Below are positions 12,578-31,416 of a stretch of DNA of 32,638 bases, one piece after another. The DNA is taken from assembly GCA_043754535.1 (NCBI GenBank), contig JAYUUN010000083.1, forward strand, positions 1 to 32,638, in the 5' to 3' direction. Origin of the DNA: Chloroflexota bacterium (GTDB lineage Bacteria > Chloroflexota > Chloroflexia > QHBQ01). The translations under genes were made by a program, and so were the position numbers. The notes beneath the pieces were generated by a model. The model made no database searches, was not told where the DNA came from, and saw only the letters and a program-made list of their open reading frames with translations. Numbering within the stretch: position 1 is the stretch's first letter; each line of letters starts with the position of its first letter.

Positions 12578-13375
12578 TCAAAGATGCAGCAGGCTGAGGA
12601 GCAGGTAGCTGCCCAGCATGGCAAGCAGGAAGCTACTAGCCTGGAGCAGATCGCGCTGGCGGTCGAGTACCCAGTCGTTGAAGTCGATCAGGCTGGCGTT
12701 GCGGAAGGTGATGATACCGCCGAGCATGGCGGGCAGCCCACGCACCAAGCCGTAGAGCGCACCTAGTAGCAGCCCCACTTTGAGGCTGGCGGCCAGCAAC
12801 TCCCAGCCGAGCAGTAGATAGAAACCCGCAAAGGGGATGAAGGTGAACACACCTGCGCCCAGGGCGAGGCCGTAGAAGAAGGTACCGACGAGGGGGTAGT
12901 TGACCCCCCAGGAGTTAGGCACTTGCCAGTTGGATTGTGGCGCAGGCAGGCGCAGCACGCCCACCTCGTGCAGGGCATAGAGCAGGGCAGTGACCGCCAG
13001 CAACGCCACCGGTATAGCCTCTCTGCCAAAGAACAGCAGGCGCAGTGGCTTACCGAGCAAGGCTAGCAGCAGCCCCAGCAACGCGCCACCGAGCGCAGAT
13101 GCGAGTACGTATACAACTACTCTGGCGAGCCAGAGCCTTACATCCTTTGCCTGCTGACCCAGCGGCACGATCACGTAGATCATGTTCACCCCTCAGGCAG
13201 AGGAGGTTTTGGCAATGCCGAGCAGCACTGCCAGTGCAGCCACCAGCGCGAGAGCCGCCCCTGCCCGCAGATCGACGTTGGCCCCCTGCCACAAGGCAAG
13301 GCCCACCCCGGTCAGGAGACCGGTGGCAGGCCAGAGTAGGGAGCTAAAGCGTCTACTTGCGCTCAGGTTAGCCAT
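12578..13375 (-). CDS. MauF-like membrane protein with in-frame TGA (13193-13195); candidate selenoprotein, alternatively a nonsense pseudogene
   Basis: ORFs 13193..13375 and 12578..13189 are in the same frame, separated only by TGA-GGG. Readthrough gives SSA-U-GVNM, matching MauF S-P-C-G as recalled. PQSNWQVP and YGLALG motifs are also MauF-like. Confidence 0.65.
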
Positions 13376-13386
13376 CAGTCAGCTAG

Positions 13387-13839
13387 CTAGTCGTTGCTGC
13401 GCTGGCGGCCCAGCGCAGGAGCGGCTACCGGCGACTTGCTGGTGCGGAACTCGCGGCAACCACACTGATAATTGCTCGCGCTGCAGAAGCAGTCGGTGCA
13501 GACGAAGTAGCCCGGTACCACGCCCCGCCCGCCCGTGCAGTACGAAGTCCAGGTGCCAGAGGGATAATAGTTGCGGTTGAGGCGACACTCCTCCATAGTA
13601 CCGCGCCCGCTGTCCTGGTAGCAGTTTGCGCCCCGACAGTTGGTGCAGTACGGCCCCGGTGGCGAGCAGGAGCAGATGCTGTTGGTGTAAGCCTCGGCCA
13701 CCTGGGTGAACTTGCCAGTAGCAACCCCGACCAGCACGGCAAACACTGCGGTGCCTGCTTGCTTGAGGAACGAGCGGCGGTCAACGGCCCTGGCGATGCT
13801 CTGGGCCAACCGCTGCGTAGATGTCAGTTCTTCATCCAT
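13387..13839 (-). CDS. Tat-exported cysteine-rich protein, distantly MauA (methylamine dehydrogenase small subunit)-like
   Basis: DRRSFLK Tat motif, hydrophobic stretch and AEA cleavage site. The mature part has 12 Cys and one Trp (GTWTSYC). AGGAG RBS. Confidence 0.75.
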   Translation of the reverse strand: MDEELTSTQRLAQSIARAVDRRSFLKQAGTAVFAVLVGVATGKFTQVAEAYTNSICSCSPPGPYCTNCRGANCYQDSGRGTMEECRLNRNYYPSGTWTSYCTGGRGVVPGYFVCTDCFCSASNYQCGCREFRTSKSPVAAPALGRQRSND

Positions 13840-13854
13840 TTTGTTACTCCTATA

Positions 13855-14475
13855 CTAAACTGCGCTGAAACGAGAGAACCGGGTGGGTAAGCGGGCGGCC
13901 AGGGGAGCGGCAGTGCTGCCGCCCGCCTCGGCCTCGCGCAGGTAGGTCTCCAGGTTTTGCCTGGTGTTCGCCAGCCCCTTGACCAGCACCTTGCCGTTGG
14001 GGTTGAGCAGGAAAACGAACGGGGTGACGCGCACCTGGTAGCGTTCCATCAGGCTGCCGTCGTCGCTGCTGACGGTCGGCAAGACCGACTCCATCTCTGC
14101 GACGTAGCGCACACTCTCCTCATGGCTGGTGCGGTTGTTGATCCAGAGGGCGTGGACGCGATCCCCATGCTCGGTAACGAACTGCTGCACGTCGGGTAGG
14201 AGGCGGCGGCAGGGCTGGCAAGTGGTCGAGCCGAAGACAAGCAGCAGATACCGCTTGCCGTCAAGCAGCGACCGCATCTGCAAGTTCTCGCCTTGCTGGT
14301 TGAGCGCACCAAAGTCGGGAGCGAGGGTATTGGACTTGAGGCCATCACCCGCCACCCCCTGCGCGGTGTTGAGGTACTGCTGACCGATCTGACGGTAGAG
14401 CAGCACCACGAGCAAGCCCAGGGCCAGGACTATGGCCCAAAGGACTATATAACTGACCAGCCAGATGCCATCCAT
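13855..14475 (-). CDS. mauD: MauD-like membrane-anchored thioredoxin/redoxin
   Basis: N-terminal TM SYIVLW...LYRQIG, APDF, CQPC, YQVRVTPF, KGLANT..LE. Confidence 0.75.
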   Translation of the reverse strand: MDGIWLVSYIVLWAIVLALGLLVVLLYRQIGQQYLNTAQGVAGDGLKSNTLAPDFGALNQQGENLQMRSLLDGKRYLLLVFGSTTCQPCRRLLPDVQQFVTEHGDRVHALWINNRTSHEESVRYVAEMESVLPTVSSDDGSLMERYQVRVTPFVFLLNPNGKVLVKGLANTRQNLETYLREAEAGGSTAAPLAARLPTRFSRFSAV

Positions 14476-14506: not shown

Positions 14507-15085
14507 TTATACTGCCTGCAAGGTCTGGCGGATGTAGCCAAGCACACGACCGCCAAATACGATCCCTACGACGGTGATCCCTGCCAGGAGCAGCACTGGT
14601 AGACCGTCAAGCGCGGGCGGATAGACCCCCTGCCGCCCTGCCACCACCAGGTAGTCGAGCGCAAGCCAGGCCGAGCCAGTGAAGGTCAGCAGCAGCGCAG
14701 TGGTCAGCAGCAGCAGATTACGCAGCAGCGCACCCCATGTTAGCGTCCCCGCCGAAAAGCTACCGAAGCAATGACAGTTCTCCGTCTTGCCAAGCAGCAG
14801 CTTACGAGCCAACACTATGCTAAAGAGCAGAAACATGGCCGCTGCTGCCAGCCCCGCTATGTTAGTCAGCAGCCCCAGCAGCAGCAGCCCGCCGATAGCT
14901 AGCTCAACAAAGGGCAGTAGCCGTGCCGCAAGCCGCGCCAGTGGCAAGGGCAGGAAGCTGACCTCAGCCAGCAGCAGCCCTGGATTGTTCTCGCGCAGCT
15001 TGCCCACCCCAGCAACGAGCAGCACCCCCGCCAGCAACAGGCGAGCAAACAGCACTAGATAGGGTGAATTAACGACCTCTGCCAC
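14507..15085 (-). CDS. mauE: MauE/DoxX family redox-associated membrane protein
   Basis: ARLLLAGVLLVAGVGKL, LPFVELAIG, NCHCFG, LLRNLLL. Confidence 0.8.
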   Translation of the reverse strand: MAEVVNSPYLVLFARLLLAGVLLVAGVGKLRENNPGLLLAEVSFLPLPLARLAARLLPFVELAIGGLLLLGLLTNIAGLAAAAMFLLFSIVLARKLLLGKTENCHCFGSFSAGTLTWGALLRNLLLLTTALLLTFTGSAWLALDYLVVAGRQGVYPPALDGLPVLLLAGITVVGIVFGGRVLGYIRQTLQAV

Positions 15086-15390
15086 CGCTTAGACCTTTAT
15101 GCAAGCGAACGATAGTCTCAAGTGCCAGCGAACCCGCTGGCTCTGGCTGAATGTTAGCACAAACTGGGGGGAGAGTCAAGGGGCTGCCGATGTGGTTCAA
15201 CTACTAGCTGCGCGCAACCGCAGCATCCAGCAGTGTGCTAACCTGGGCCAGCAACTCGCAGTAATGTTGGAGGTTGATCACCCTGGCAGGAGGCTTAGCG
15301 GCTGCGTCCAGCATTTGCGAGCAGCACTGGCCCCCCTCCGCGCTGATCGTGGGCTAATTGTAGCACCACTGTACTGGATAGTCAGTGTGG

Positions 15391-15419
15391 TTGCCGCGCT
15401 CTCTATGCTCTGCTATAAT
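15391..15419 (+). promoter_or_regulatory. Sigma70 promoter with extended -10, likely giving a leaderless methyltransferase mRNA
   Basis: TTGCCG (15391-15396), 17 bp spacer, TATAAT (15414-15419) preceded by TG-C. ATG 15427 follows after a 7-nt gap with no SD. Confidence 0.6.
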
Positions 15420-15426
15420 GGCGACT

Positions 15427-16386
15427 ATGCAGGCTAATCCCTTCCTCAAGTGGGCTGGTGGCAAGCGGCAGTTGCTCAGCCACCTACTGCCCCTCGTCCC
15501 CGCACGCTACAGCCGCTACCTGGAGCCATTCATTGGCGGTGGCGCGCTTTACTTTGCCACTCAGCCACGGGTTGCCTTCATTGCCGACGCAAACCGCGAG
15601 TTGGTCACCACCTATGAGGTTGTGCGCGACAAGCCAGAGGCACTGGTCGCGCGGCTGACTGAACACCGCACCTGCCACAATCAAGATTACTACTACCAGC
15701 TACGTGCTGAACAGCCTACCTCTCCACTTGAGGTTGCTGCTCGCTTCATCTACCTGAACAAAACCTGCTTCAACGGCCTCTACCGCGTCAATCGCAGCGG
15801 CCAGTACAATGTGCCAATCGGCAGCTACAAGAACCCCCAGATATTCGACCGCTCCAACCTGCTTGCCTGTGCCTCTGCCCTTAAATCGGCCATCATCCGC
15901 CATGCTGACTACCGCGAAACGCTGCAAGAGGCAAAGTCAGGTGATTTCGTCTACCTCGATCCACCCTATGCTCCGCTCAGTCCTACATCCTCGTTCACCA
16001 GCTATACGAAAGACGAGTTTGGTGAGCGGCAGCAGCGCGAACTGGCCCAGTGCTACCGTGAATTGGATCGGCGCGGCTGCTACGTGATGCTAAGTAACTC
16101 CTCAGCCCAGCTAATCCTTGACATCTATCAGGGCTTTGATGTTCGTCTAGTTGCTGCTACACGCATGATCAACAGCAAAGCGGACGGGCGTGGTATGGTC
16201 AACGAGGTGGTTATTTTGAACTACCAACCGCCCGCTAGCGGATTCGTAAAAGTGGATAAGCGGACAAAGCAGCCAGTCAACCCAGTATCAGTAGGCTTGT
16301 TACCATCCAATGAAGATGCAATCGGGTCACATCAAACTGAACAGCAACCATCTACATCCACTTATCCATTTCTACGAATCCGCTAG
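15427..16386 (+). CDS. Dam/DpnM-family (alpha class) N6-adenine DNA methyltransferase
   Basis: FLKWAGGK, YLEPFIGGGA, FIYLNKTCFNGLYRVN..G.YNVP.G.Y, FVYLDPPY, MLSNS. Confidence 0.9.
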   Translation: MQANPFLKWAGGKRQLLSHLLPLVPARYSRYLEPFIGGGALYFATQPRVAFIADANRELVTTYEVVRDKPEALVARLTEHRTCHNQDYYYQLRAEQPTSPLEVAARFIYLNKTCFNGLYRVNRSGQYNVPIGSYKNPQIFDRSNLLACASALKSAIIRHADYRETLQEAKSGDFVYLDPPYAPLSPTSSFTSYTKDEFGERQQRELAQCYRELDRRGCYVMLSNSSAQLILDIYQGFDVRLVAATRMINSKADGRGMVNEVVILNYQPPASGFVKVDKRTKQPVNPVSVGLLPSNEDAIGSHQTEQQPSTSTYPFLRIR

Positions 16387-28313: not shown

Positions 28314-29987
28314 TCAAGTTGTTAAGCTGACCACCGCCTCATCCTCAGCGGCTGCGTCCGTCTGCGGGGCCGCCTCCACATCGAAGCCGCGCACGAAGTC
28401 GGCCATCACGTTCGGGGTGGCGGTGTCGAAGCCAACCACGTCAAGCATCCCCCCGTCGTCAGGGTCAGCGATGCTGAAGCCGTTGGAGGTCATGCCCACC
28501 ACGATCAGCTTGGCCGGGATAGCCATCTTCTGGCGGTACTGCTGCAAGGCCTGGACAGGATGCACATCCCCCACCCAGGTCTCCGAGTCGGTGTAGATGG
28601 TGAACACGTCCACCTTCAGCTTCTTCTCCATTGCGTAGAGCATCGGCTGGGCGCAATCGGTCGAGCCGAACGGCAGGTCACTGATCGCCTTGATCGCATC
28701 GTCGAGACGCTGGCGGGGCGAGATGGTTAGTGGAAGCAGCTTGTTCTGGAAGCCAACCACATGGTACCGAGCTTCAGTGGCCGCCGTGACCAGGCACATT
28801 GCCGCCGAGGCATCGCGGGGCGATAGGTTCGGCACGCCGCCAACGTTGCCAGCACCCATCGAGCCGGACACGTCGAGGGCCAACAGCCACCGCTTGCCGG
28901 TGCTTGCCACGTTGCCGAAGCTAAGGTAGAAGGCACTGTCGAGTGCATCCACGATCTGTGTGACTGGCTGCCAGGTGTTGCCACCGCGCACCCCCTCCCC
29001 ACTGCCGTAAGTGCGCAGAGCAGCCAGCACCGCAATCGGGTGGATGCGCGCCTTCGTCAGCCGCTCGCCATCTTGCAGCGCAGCCACCACCTTGCCCACT
29101 GCCTCTGCCCCAGGCACAAGCAGCCCAACCCGCGTCATCGTCGCCAGGTTGCGGATCAGAGCGGTCGTCGGCATCGTCCCCTCACCGAGCAGAGCCTCCC
29201 ACACTGCAACCTGGTTGAGGTACTGGGTGGGGATCGCCTCCCGCGGGAGGTTGTAGTCGTTGATCAGGCGCACGACTTCGCCGACCGAGCTAGCTCGCTT
29301 CGCCTTCTCAAAAGCCCAGAGCAGTTGCAGGGCCGCCTCTGGGTGTGGCTCATTGCCGACCCACTCCCAGCCGCCCTTGACCACCCAGTTGTAGATGTCG
29401 TTATGCTGCGGCGTAGTCGCCTTCGGGTGAGTCAGGCGCAGGAGGTCGCGGTGACTCCAGCCGTCGCGCTGCTGGTACTTGACCACCTGCAACGCTAGCT
29501 TGCGCGCAGGCTGCTGGTACCAGCGGGCGACCGCGTTTCGCAGCCCACGCCCCCAGCCCCGCATATTGCCCGCATACTGGGCGAAGTGGAACAGATGGGT
29601 GCCAGTGCGACAGACCTGCGGCACCGCATTGAGGGCCAGCTTGCGCGTAGCCTCGTCGCCAACAGTGGCAGCCACGGCCAGAGCAAAGATAGCGGGGTCG
29701 TTCTTGGGCGCACGGCCACCCTCAGAGACGGCCACGATGGTCTCTACAGCACGCTTGCCGTCGGCGGCGATGCAGGCAACCACCGCCAGTGCGTTCTCCT
29801 GCGTAAGCTGCTTCTCGCTGATGTAGTAAGTGCCGCCCTCGCTGCCCAGGATCAGGAAGCGCAGTAGCCGCTGCCAGTCGTCCACCGCGAACGAGTAGCC
29901 GCCTGCACTGTTGGCCGCCATCTCCTTGCCAGGGATCGGCTCACTCTGCGGGGTCTGCTTGGGGTTGAAGTACTTGGTAAAGTTCAT
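28314..29987 (-). CDS. rsr: Ro60 orthologue (TROVE + vWA domains)
   Basis: PQSEPIPG..NSAGGY.F..D.W.RL.RFLILGSEGGTYY, RTGTHLF, KYQQRDGWSHRDLLRL.HP, ALIRNLATM, RIHP, MIDAS DVSGSM, TDCAQPM, YTDSETW, MLDVVGFD. GGAGG RBS. Confidence 0.95.
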   Translation of the reverse strand: MNFTKYFNPKQTPQSEPIPGKEMAANSAGGYSFAVDDWQRLLRFLILGSEGGTYYISEKQLTQENALAVVACIAADGKRAVETIVAVSEGGRAPKNDPAIFALAVAATVGDEATRKLALNAVPQVCRTGTHLFHFAQYAGNMRGWGRGLRNAVARWYQQPARKLALQVVKYQQRDGWSHRDLLRLTHPKATTPQHNDIYNWVVKGGWEWVGNEPHPEAALQLLWAFEKAKRASSVGEVVRLINDYNLPREAIPTQYLNQVAVWEALLGEGTMPTTALIRNLATMTRVGLLVPGAEAVGKVVAALQDGERLTKARIHPIAVLAALRTYGSGEGVRGGNTWQPVTQIVDALDSAFYLSFGNVASTGKRWLLALDVSGSMGAGNVGGVPNLSPRDASAAMCLVTAATEARYHVVGFQNKLLPLTISPRQRLDDAIKAISDLPFGSTDCAQPMLYAMEKKLKVDVFTIYTDSETWVGDVHPVQALQQYRQKMAIPAKLIVVGMTSNGFSIADPDDGGMLDVVGFDTATPNVMADFVRGFDVEAAPQTDAAAEDEAVVSLTT

Positions 29988-30025
29988 GACGACCACCTCC
30001 CATCAGGGTGCTAAAAAGTCGGCGA

Positions 30026-30131
30026 GACGGACAAGTAGTGGGCTGGCAGTGCCTCCGCAGGCTACCCAGAAAGGGCCAGGAGTCGAACCTGAACTTCGAA
30101 TGAAGTGGTAAGCCAACCGCAGCGGCCCATC
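30026..30131 (-). ncRNA. Y RNA-like element 7 (nearest rsr); miniaturised permuted tRNA mimic
   Basis: 5' GATGGGCCG pairs with 3' CTTGTCCGTC. Contains GGCTTACC, T arm CAGGTTCGACTCCTG, short acceptor hairpin GCCC/GGGT and D-like GCCT-GCGG-AGGC. Confidence 0.7.
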
Positions 30132-30196
30132 CAATTGAGCGGGGCAGTAGCCCCCTTACGCGGCAGATTTTGGTGCTAGTTGCAGGCTAGCCAGCT

Positions 30197-30394
30197 TGGT
30201 CAGGCGGACAAGGGGCGGATCAGGGCATTGCTCGCCACGAGCATCTCAACCCTTGCGGGTCGGGCGGGACTCAACCCCCGCTGCTTACAGCTGCTCTGCC
30301 GTTGAGCTGCGCTACCTTGCGGCAACGGTGGCGAATCGAACGCCACAACCCACTGTCAAATTAGATAACCTGGTCACATCGGCCCGTCTGACCA
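30197..30394 (-). ncRNA. Y RNA-like element 6 with two tandem permuted tRNA-like modules
   Basis: TGGTCAGACGGGCCG / CTTGTCCGCCTGACCA terminal stem, GGTTATC, then two T arm - GCAA-capped acceptor - D arm series. Confidence 0.72.
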
Positions 30395-30427
30395 CGCTGG
30401 CTGCGTGCGCTAGAGAAGATCGGTTGG

Positions 30428-30558
30428 GGTAGTCGCTGTCGTCAGGTAGACTAGCTGTGTTCATGGGACGCTGGAGTTGAACCAGCGCGTCCACCTTGCG
30501 GTGGTCGCTTGCCACTGATAACCCATCAACTTCGGCCCACCTGACGACGGCGGCTGCC
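30428..30558 (-). ncRNA. Y RNA-like element 5 with long terminal stem and non-permuted tRNA-like core
   Basis: ~20-bp terminal stem, GGGCCGAAG / CTAGTCT, GGTTATC, CCACC-GCAA-GGTGG hairpin, then T arm GCTGGTTCAACTCCAGC. Confidence 0.65.
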
Positions 30559-30582
30559 GTCTTTGCTGCTTGATGCTGTAAT

Positions 30583-30771
30583 TTGCTTCCGACAAGAACC
30601 TCGCTGCAAGTTAACCACCTGCTGGCTCGCACCAGCAGGCGGGTGCATTCAACCACTCTGCCACGTCATCCCCAGCGGGCGACGGCGGGATTCGAACCCG
30701 CGAGGCTGTTCTGTGACCAGCCTACCGAAGCTAACTTTGCTGGCTAGCCAGATAAACTGCGGCACTGGCAA
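30583..30771 (-). ncRNA. Y RNA-like element 4 with class II (Ser-like) permuted tRNA mimic
   Basis: GTGCCGCAG / CTTGTCG stem, GTTTATC, long variable arm AGGCTG..CAGCCT, T arm GCGGGTTCGAATCCCGC, capped acceptor, D arm TGGCAGAGTGGTTGAATGCA. Confidence 0.68.
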
Positions 30772-30946
30772 GGTGAAGCGGACAAGTGGCGCAAATGGGA
30801 TAGCTTCCACCAGGATCGCTCCTGGCTTCTGCAAGCTGCTCTACCACTGAGCTACCTCCCCCAGGTTGGTGGTGGAGAGAGGGAATCGAACCCCCGACCA
30901 GCCGATTAAGAGTCGGTAACCCACGTACTAGCGGCCCACTTCACCT
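30771..30946 (-). ncRNA. Y RNA-like element 3 (YrlA-like) with Lys(CTT) anticodon-like loop
   Basis: AGGTGAAGTGGGCCG / CTTGTCCGCTTCACCT stem, GGTTACC, CCGA-CTCTTAA-TCGG, T arm GGGGGTTCGATTCCCTC, looped acceptor, D arm TAGCTCAGTGGTAGAGCA. Confidence 0.8.
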
Positions 30947-30982
30947 CGTCAGTACCCGATCAGTTGTAGCCTACTCTAGCCT

Positions 30983-31098
30983 AGACAGTCGGACAAGAAT
31001 CGCGCTTGACTATGCTCCCCTGCGGAGCTACACCCCCATGATGGGTGGGGGTGCGTGGACTCGAACCTGATAACCGAACGACAGCGGCCCACCTGTCT
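30983..31098 (-). ncRNA. Y RNA-like element 2 (permuted tRNA mimic with degenerate T stem)
   Basis: AGACAGGTGGGCCG / CTTGTCCGACTGTCT stem, GGTTATC, GGTTCGAGTCC, acceptor hairpin CACCCCCA/TGGGGGTG, D arm TAGCTCCGCAGGGGAGCA. Confidence 0.7.
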
Positions 31099-31118
31099 GC
31101 GCCAGAGGTAGTCAGAGG

Positions 31119-31183
31119 GGTGTGAGGGCAAGTTGTCGCTGCTGGGGCCTTGACGATAACCCAACAACTTCGGCCCTCTCACC
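31119..31183 (-). ncRNA. Y RNA-like element 1 (minimal, no tRNA module)
   Basis: GGTGAGAGGGCCGAAGTTGTTG / CGACAACTTGCCCTCACACC stem with GGTTATC. Begins at the predicted transcription start. Confidence 0.65.
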
Positions 31184-31186
31184 ACA

Positions 31187-31215
31187 ATTTTAGCTTAAAG
31201 TCGGCAAATGGTCAA
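31187..31215 (-). promoter_or_regulatory. Sigma70 promoter for the Y RNA array-rsr unit
   Basis: Minus strand TTGACC (31215-31210), 17 bp spacer, TAAAAT (31192-31187). Predicted start ~31180-31182 coincides with the 5' end of element 1. Confidence 0.7.
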
Positions 31216-31416
31216 TAGGGATGAAGGTGTATTTGTGCTACGCCCACAGCAGTAGACTGCCGCTTGCTCACTCACTTGCACAGTCATTACGTCCGAAGTG
31301 GCAAAAAGGTTGCATGATCTGCGCCATTTGTCGCAATCTGCGACCAAAGTGGCGAGTCCAGTCGCTGGTGCAACCGACCCGCTGTCTACACTGTGGCCGG
31401 GCCGCAAGTTGCAGCC

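Follow-up and report, generated by a model that had tools for sequence, protein, structure and literature searches.

A MauF-like membrane protein of Chloroflexota with an in-frame UGA almost certainly read as selenocysteine

A stretch of 32,638 nucleotides from a Chloroflexota bacterium (contig JAYUUN010000083.1, assembly GCA_043754535.1), hereafter the window, was found to carry a MauF-like membrane protein gene on its minus strand (12578..13375). The in-frame stop of this gene is almost certainly read as selenocysteine (Sec), at the one conserved Cys of MauF. Comparison of sequences makes Sec at UGA 61 very highly probable. A MauF-family membrane selenoprotein, with Sec61 inserted under the guidance of SelB and a hairpin, is a highly probable explanation of the observations overall.

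The interrupted MauF-like reading frame

Read from 13375 to 12578 on the minus strand, the frame gives 60 amino acids, a TGA (13193..13195), 204 further amino acids and a terminal TGA. The residues around the in-frame UGA are KTSSA-UGA-GVNMIYV. The original prediction had treated ORFs of 60 and 203 aa as one frame split by TGA, and translation bore this out: the product has 265 aa counting Sec61 and contains no other Cys. Database entries hold only the 201-aa piece from ATG 13183.

The UGA, the inferred Sec codon, falls on the Cys of the MauF S-P-C-G motif and on the first catalytic Cys of CcdA. Paracoccus MauF was retrieved by a search with a Cys homologue. A MauF-family profile aligned with it at P=99.3 over 197 columns with 30% identity, placing the UGA column on the Cys of STWSPCG. 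Homology to MauF is full-length and includes the S-P-C-G position. The S-P-C-G motif given in the original prediction is real (STWSPCGYSS in Paracoccus MauF), and the proposed pairing of UGA with Cys holds in this profile match.

The TGA was then followed through homologues reaching down to about 25% identity. The gene was matched in 35 of 40 relatives, which are not independent of each other, and every one of the 35 carried one in-frame TGA. Its context was K/M-T-S/T-S-A-TGA-G-V/L-N-M, viewed directly at 25 loci and later at further ones. In a sample of the phylum, 17 of 400 genomes gave a match: the same column held TGA in 14 and TGC (Cys) in one, and two matches stopped short of the Sec site. 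The contexts of these 14 TGA genes were very different (V-G-H, A-S-P, W-S-P, H-A-P). Across 123 homologous loci, metagenomes included, the codon was TGA in 56, TGC in 50, TGT in 17 and anything else in none; these loci represent 44 distinct TGA genes and 53 distinct Cys genes. Coding homology lies on either side of the in-frame UGA, as in bacterial selenoproteins, and the UGA sits on the conserved Cys of homologues and is kept in other Sec users. The expectation that homologues would share a TGA at this site was therefore confirmed in the 35 relatives, a genome of the same genus, the phylum sample and metagenomes. Genomes flagged as unpublished (G007, G012, G015, G034, G267, G508 and G548) are included in the counts and alignments; none of the compensatory changes, the cases without a nearby Met or the Cys genome G155 described below comes from them.

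A quick tree of 97 rows (105 minus 8 near-copies) required four changes between Sec and Cys, with a single origin also possible, and its long branches do not fix the direction of change. A second, distant Sec-containing MauF paralogue was observed at two loci (L046 in G008 and L047 in G036), each in its own mauE-mauD-mauF-Tat operon and with the same SECIS loop.

The SECIS hairpin and the selenocysteine machinery

Downstream of the UGA lies a hairpin of 8 bp with one bulge (13148..13167, minus strand; -9.9 kcal/mol), whose apical loop GGU (13157..13159) begins 33 nt past the UGA. As given in PMC13188914, the bSECIS model has a loop of 3-9 nt with G in its first two positions, 16-37 nt from the UGA, a stem of 4-16 bp and an MFE of at most -7.5. 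The hairpin conforms to this model. Both structures offered in the original prediction occur in the minimum-energy fold, but only the one written UGCC...GGU...GGCA is a SECIS. The other, with a UACGU loop (13167..13183, minus strand), is not, because its first two loop positions contain no G and because it is conserved in close relatives only, where it shows one compensatory pair. This small hairpin covers the internal AUG (Met65) and may hinder initiation there. Against shuffled sequences the 24-nt second hairpin gave z -2.3 and folds of 51-60 nt were no stabler (z -0.5 to -0.9). Evidence for a SECIS therefore comes from comparison rather than energy.

That comparison was made in several ways. 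In 21 close sequences, 96.5% of cells were paired and three pairs showed double changes; the covariation score was reached by none of 500 shuffles and slid controls paired at 34-65%. In 20 diverse sequences, 91.7% were paired, again with three pairs doubly changed and none of 500 shuffles reaching the score, though kinship inflates both the shuffle and the slid controls and few events are involved. A hairpin with a GG or GU loop passed a fixed test in 37 of the 44 distinct TGA genes (seven failed its strict form) and in 3 of the 53 Cys genes, constantly at offset 32 in the TGA genes that passed. The SECIS is made from codons for P-L-G-(K/Q/E), residues found in Cys forms as well. Since Cys forms carry P-L-G-E too, residue-matched genes of the P-L-G-K type were compared: of those with TGA, 29 of 35 form both stems, versus 5 of 24 of those with Cys. 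In all 35 of these TGA genes, base pairing joins the third, synonymous position of the Pro codon to the first position of a later codon (25 C-G, 7 U-A, 1 G-C and 2 U-G). Third codon positions within the hairpin are constrained, at 0.46 bits against 1.33-1.35 in the flanks. The loop resembles that behind the formate dehydrogenase (FDH) Sec codon in relatives.

These results bear on a reading in which a 60-aa membrane peptide ends at the UGA and a coupled 201-aa protein starts from the AUG 9 nt later. In the window lineage an SD-like GAGGGG over the UGA is followed by ATG 13183 (13181..13194, minus strand), a possible internal start, and gene callers give the 201-aa form. The profile gathered 4402 clusters at E<=0.001; among the best 150 the Cys motif was present in 88, and 48 of the other 62 representatives begin at exactly that Met, four codons past the site. 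Nevertheless, the stop is invariably TGA, in frame and on the Cys column, and never TAA or TAG. In seven distinct TGA genes, no Met occurs in the six codons that follow. The G next to the stop is kept, as it is in C-G, the hairpin goes with TGA rather than with Cys, and AF2 models the whole chain as one unit. Two coupled genes are thus very unlikely, and a Sec-less 201-aa side product of the selenoprotein gene may also be made. The 48 clusters are candidate truncated Sec forms and an upper bound on them, as Cys forms may be called from the same Met. Records starting there include Fictibacillus, a Pyrinomonadaceae bin, Ca. Roseilinea and Ca. Amarolinea, annotated as hypothetical or TauE/CcdA.

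selA, selB, selC and selD were sought in the source genome (88.9% complete) and all four are present: SelA (E 1e-137), SelB, a tRNA-Sec (69.5 bits, anticodon TCA) and a SelD of the Cys type. Among the 49 TGA genomes, selA was found in all (two as fragments) and selB in 44, the five in which selB was not found being 66-84% complete. selA also occurs in 7 of 8 class genomes without the MauF-like gene, so co-occurrence with the Sec machinery is weak evidence. The single Chloroflexota Cys form, in G155 (96% complete), is also without the SECIS hairpin; neither selA nor selB was found in this genome, and the tRNA there that best matches tRNA-Sec is a tRNA-Ser. G155 is the one genome with an informative loss of Sec machinery.

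Leaky or reassigned decoding of the UGA as Cys or Trp would agree with the Cys carried by homologues. However, TGA closes 412 of the 1265 frames of 400 or more codons in the source genome, so this genome is not recoded and UGA serves in it as an ordinary stop. Its tRNA with anticodon TCA is moreover tRNA-Sec, and the hairpin fits the bSECIS model with its FDH-like loop, making such decoding highly improbable. A nonsense mutation, Cys codons being one change away from TGA, or an assembly error in a pseudogene can practically be dismissed, as conservation of the TGA in 49 other genomes, with open frames on either side, refuted this alternative raised in the original prediction. Reads carrying TGC or TGT were looked for in assembled contigs: TGA was the same in contigs of four runs from four studies (one maybe the source sample, one other flagged as near-identical) and unchanged in three other metagenome assemblies and the same-genus genome.

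We also checked the source genome for further selenoproteins. A SelL-related protein with the motif H-F-G-U-P-H-C (G000:C54:30996-31454, minus strand; L226) scored above its family cut-off and has a hairpin with a GUU loop at its gene, indicating that the Sec system has another client. The idea of the MauF-like protein as the sole selenoprotein of the genome was rejected given this UxxC protein of a known family. A loose hairpin scan gave 230 matches, mostly chance, and a SECIS-model search of the genome matched the MauF-like gene only. A coding-potential screen missed the MauF-like gene itself, and what it ranked highest was either adjacent genes or, probably, nonsense mutations. A 985-codon frame for a secreted protein contains an in-frame TGA at 66 codons from its start (G000:C29:50079, minus strand); this TGA has no SECIS-like hairpin and is probably a nonsense mutation. 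A tRNA-Pyl call by ARAGORN (G000:C31:4032-4124) has mismatched acceptor and T stems and is probably false. In other genomes, thioredoxin-like proteins of about 500 aa were observed (L222-L225, in G005, G008, G017 and G009). Their motif is F-W-T-Y-G-U-I-N-C (UxxC), the genes show a clean hairpin, and the C-terminal part spans 400+ aa. Sec formate dehydrogenase scored above cut-off in three of five genomes (G005, G009 and G017) and was not found in G000, the source genome, or G008 (89-91% complete).

Gene neighbourhood and a possible electron relay

The operon in the window runs mauE, mauD-like, Tat 12-Cys gene and mauF-like on the minus strand. The MauE membrane protein (14507..15085) matches PF07291 at E 3.7e-23 and carries a C-x-C-F-G motif that was invariant in 30 sequences. 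Next is a MauD/TlpA-like membrane-anchored thioredoxin with CQPC (13855..14475), whose ORF reaches TTG 14556, ATG 14475 being the preferred start. The Tat-exported protein (13387..13839; 150 aa, 12 Cys and one Trp) is the presumed substrate. Sigma-70-like promoter matches, by pattern only, lie upstream of mauE at 15151..15179 (minus strand) and at 15357-15385.

Across 30 wide loci, MauE adjoins the MauF-like gene in 25, as judged with a profile built largely from these loci, and a MauD-like gene is present in at least 18. MauE and MauD are thus neighbours here as they are of MauF. The Tat Cys-rich genes were variable, with up to three tandem copies. Three loci hold MauE and the Sec gene alone, neither MauD nor a Tat substrate lying close by, indicating that this pair is the core. 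No MauE fusion was found among 41 longer homologues scanned. At L050, L053 and L044, a mauE-mauF pair lies downstream of paa (phenylacetate-catabolism-like) genes, as labelled from reading of the sequences.

The Paracoccus cluster mauFBEDACJG offers the closest parallel, with the same Cys position in MauF, MauE and MauD as neighbours and a Tat-exported Cys-rich neighbour. It differs in that the window protein has Sec for Cys, the operon has no MauB, MauG or amicyanin, and the Tat protein cannot be recognised as MauA. A likeness to MauA from a three-sequence alignment was contradicted by the profile test (hhalign, P=2.4), which matched the signal peptide only. The TTQ of MauA is built from two Trp, and the one Trp of the Tat protein makes such a cofactor impossible there. 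The MauB heavy chain was found in 0 of 13 genomes, these being incomplete and with no control above cut-off; PF02975 was found in 0 of 1, with the control silent too.

Elsewhere in the window, a Dam-family DNA adenine methyltransferase gene (15385-16386, plus strand) is divergent from the mau-like operon. An rsr (Ro60) gene lies at 28314-29996, and upstream of it (30000-31300, minus strand) Y-RNA-like and tRNA-like RNAs are clustered. YrlA is matched twice, at 30835-30902 (32 bits, E 1e-4) and at 30289-30354, and GGGCCG...GGTTATC stems of Ro60 type recur at 31121-31182, 30443-30544 and other positions; all of these are below Rfam gathering scores.

The MauF-like profile aligned with five CcdA/DsbD-like proteins at P=97.6 (E 3.6e-12, 207 columns), indicating a homologous membrane domain. 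Sec aligns with the first P-C of CcdA, and the column of the second catalytic Cys is unmatched, being replaced by G-x-G-x-x-T-F-I; a downstream Cys is absent in 28 of the 44 TGA forms. The original prediction of Sec at the redox Cys of a CcdA/DsbD-like membrane protein thus stood, refined in that just the first of two catalytic residues is present. CcdA, DsbD-beta and ScsB-beta transporters work with two membrane cysteines, according to the available part of PMC3322552, whereas the window protein keeps the first position, as Sec, without the second Cys. With only one of two catalytic residues it cannot act as a self-contained CcdA; in sequence terms, it is a 'half-CcdA'.

No family in Pfam or NCBIfam scans takes the MauF-like protein, although homologues match DsbD_2/DsbD_TM weakly. 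Homologues of the P0025, P0032 and P0073 type (435-600 aa, Cys type) have a fused C-terminal domain without a Pfam match, and looking for longer fusions gave one match. No PDB sequence matched. AF2, given 17 sequences and Cys in place of Sec, produced a confident, all-helical model of the entire chain (pLDDT 86.6, pTM 0.86), in which residue 61 opens the second of two predicted helices that a short break separates. In a fold search, the solved CcdA 5vkv ranked 18 (E 0.76, TM 0.31-0.35) and the best VIA Z was 6.4. The absence of a clear fold match is no demonstration of a new fold.

MauD and MauE are required for the disulfides of the MADH light chain; to our knowledge, the mechanism of MauF is unknown. 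We lean, with limited confidence, towards the MauF-like protein being one half of a split CcdA-like relay with MauE. SelB, directed by the hairpin 33 nt downstream, would insert Sec at UGA 61, at the position of the first catalytic Cys of CcdA/DsbD. The Sec61 selenolate would exchange with the C-x-C of MauE, through a presumed contact. Electrons would pass between the thioredoxin pool in the cytoplasm and the CxxC of MauD, which would face outward; direction and topology are both putative. MauD would shuffle or reduce disulfides of the co-encoded Tat-exported Cys-rich protein or proteins.

The main alternative, though rather unlikely, is that Sec is inserted but serves as the ligand of a metal or metalloid carrier, or joins a diselenide homodimer without MauE. 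It would account for there being just one redox residue. Some homologues match ArsG, a permease of the DsbD_2 fold, weakly (E 2.8e-5, 15-21 bits where shown, cut-off 200) and MauE weakly matches a Cu-binding RiPP maturation family. Against this alternative, Sec is on the catalytic position of CcdA and the genes nearby encode, as they do in the mau cluster, thiol-disulfide proteins and Cys-rich Tat substrates.

Relation to known selenoproteins and meaning

The nearest precedent is TsoB (NF045694), a rhodanese/DsbD fusion-like selenoprotein that likewise has a CcdA/DsbD-like membrane domain. In Table 1 of PMC13188914, its motif is UxxxxU. Its Sec may lie in a rhodanese loop. By contrast, the window protein has no rhodanese domain and does not match TsoB (best homologue 15 bits, cut-off 805). 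No TsoB above its cut-off was found in 301 Chloroflexota genomes. YeeE/YedE, MerT-like, SaoP and SO_0444 in the 2026 catalogue also have Sec in a bacterial membrane protein with Cys homologues, but are families unrelated to the MauF-like protein and none matched it.

Relative to the sources searched, the selenoprotein family is probably new. It is absent from the 119-family Table 1 of the 2026 catalogue (PMC13188914), and 'mau' and 'ccda' occur nowhere in the available part of that source. The text and four supplements of PMC12013277 (deep-Sep) contain no Mau, DsbD or CcdA. NCBIfam 20.0 has no family for the MauF-like protein, though it includes models for TsoB and the SelL-related selenoprotein. 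By title and abstract, a search for selenoprotein and MauF gave nothing on topic; Haft & Tolstoy 2025 and Haft & Gwadz 2023 may bear on it. No preprint containing MauF was among the matches listed (20 of 39).

The finding would add a selenoprotein family that NCBIfam 20.0 and the 119-entry 2026 catalogue are without. RefSeq relatives at NCBI start from the Met after the UGA and are called hypothetical (WP_423225220.1 and WP_426859696.1, for example). If true, the family would extend well beyond Chloroflexota, a further 48 clusters at 50% identity beginning at the post-site Met. Tentatively, it may be a selenoprotein family of old origin and wide occurrence that is systematically mis-annotated. 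It would form the half that bears Sec in a split relay of CcdA type, to which MauF contributes one Sec/Cys and MauE the C-x-C, and which is dedicated to the maturation of diverse Tat-exported disulfide-rich proteins. Sec marks catalytic redox residues, and its presence thus singles out the residue through which MauF probably works. The idea of a split, single-residue relay of CcdA type with MauE would become directly testable.
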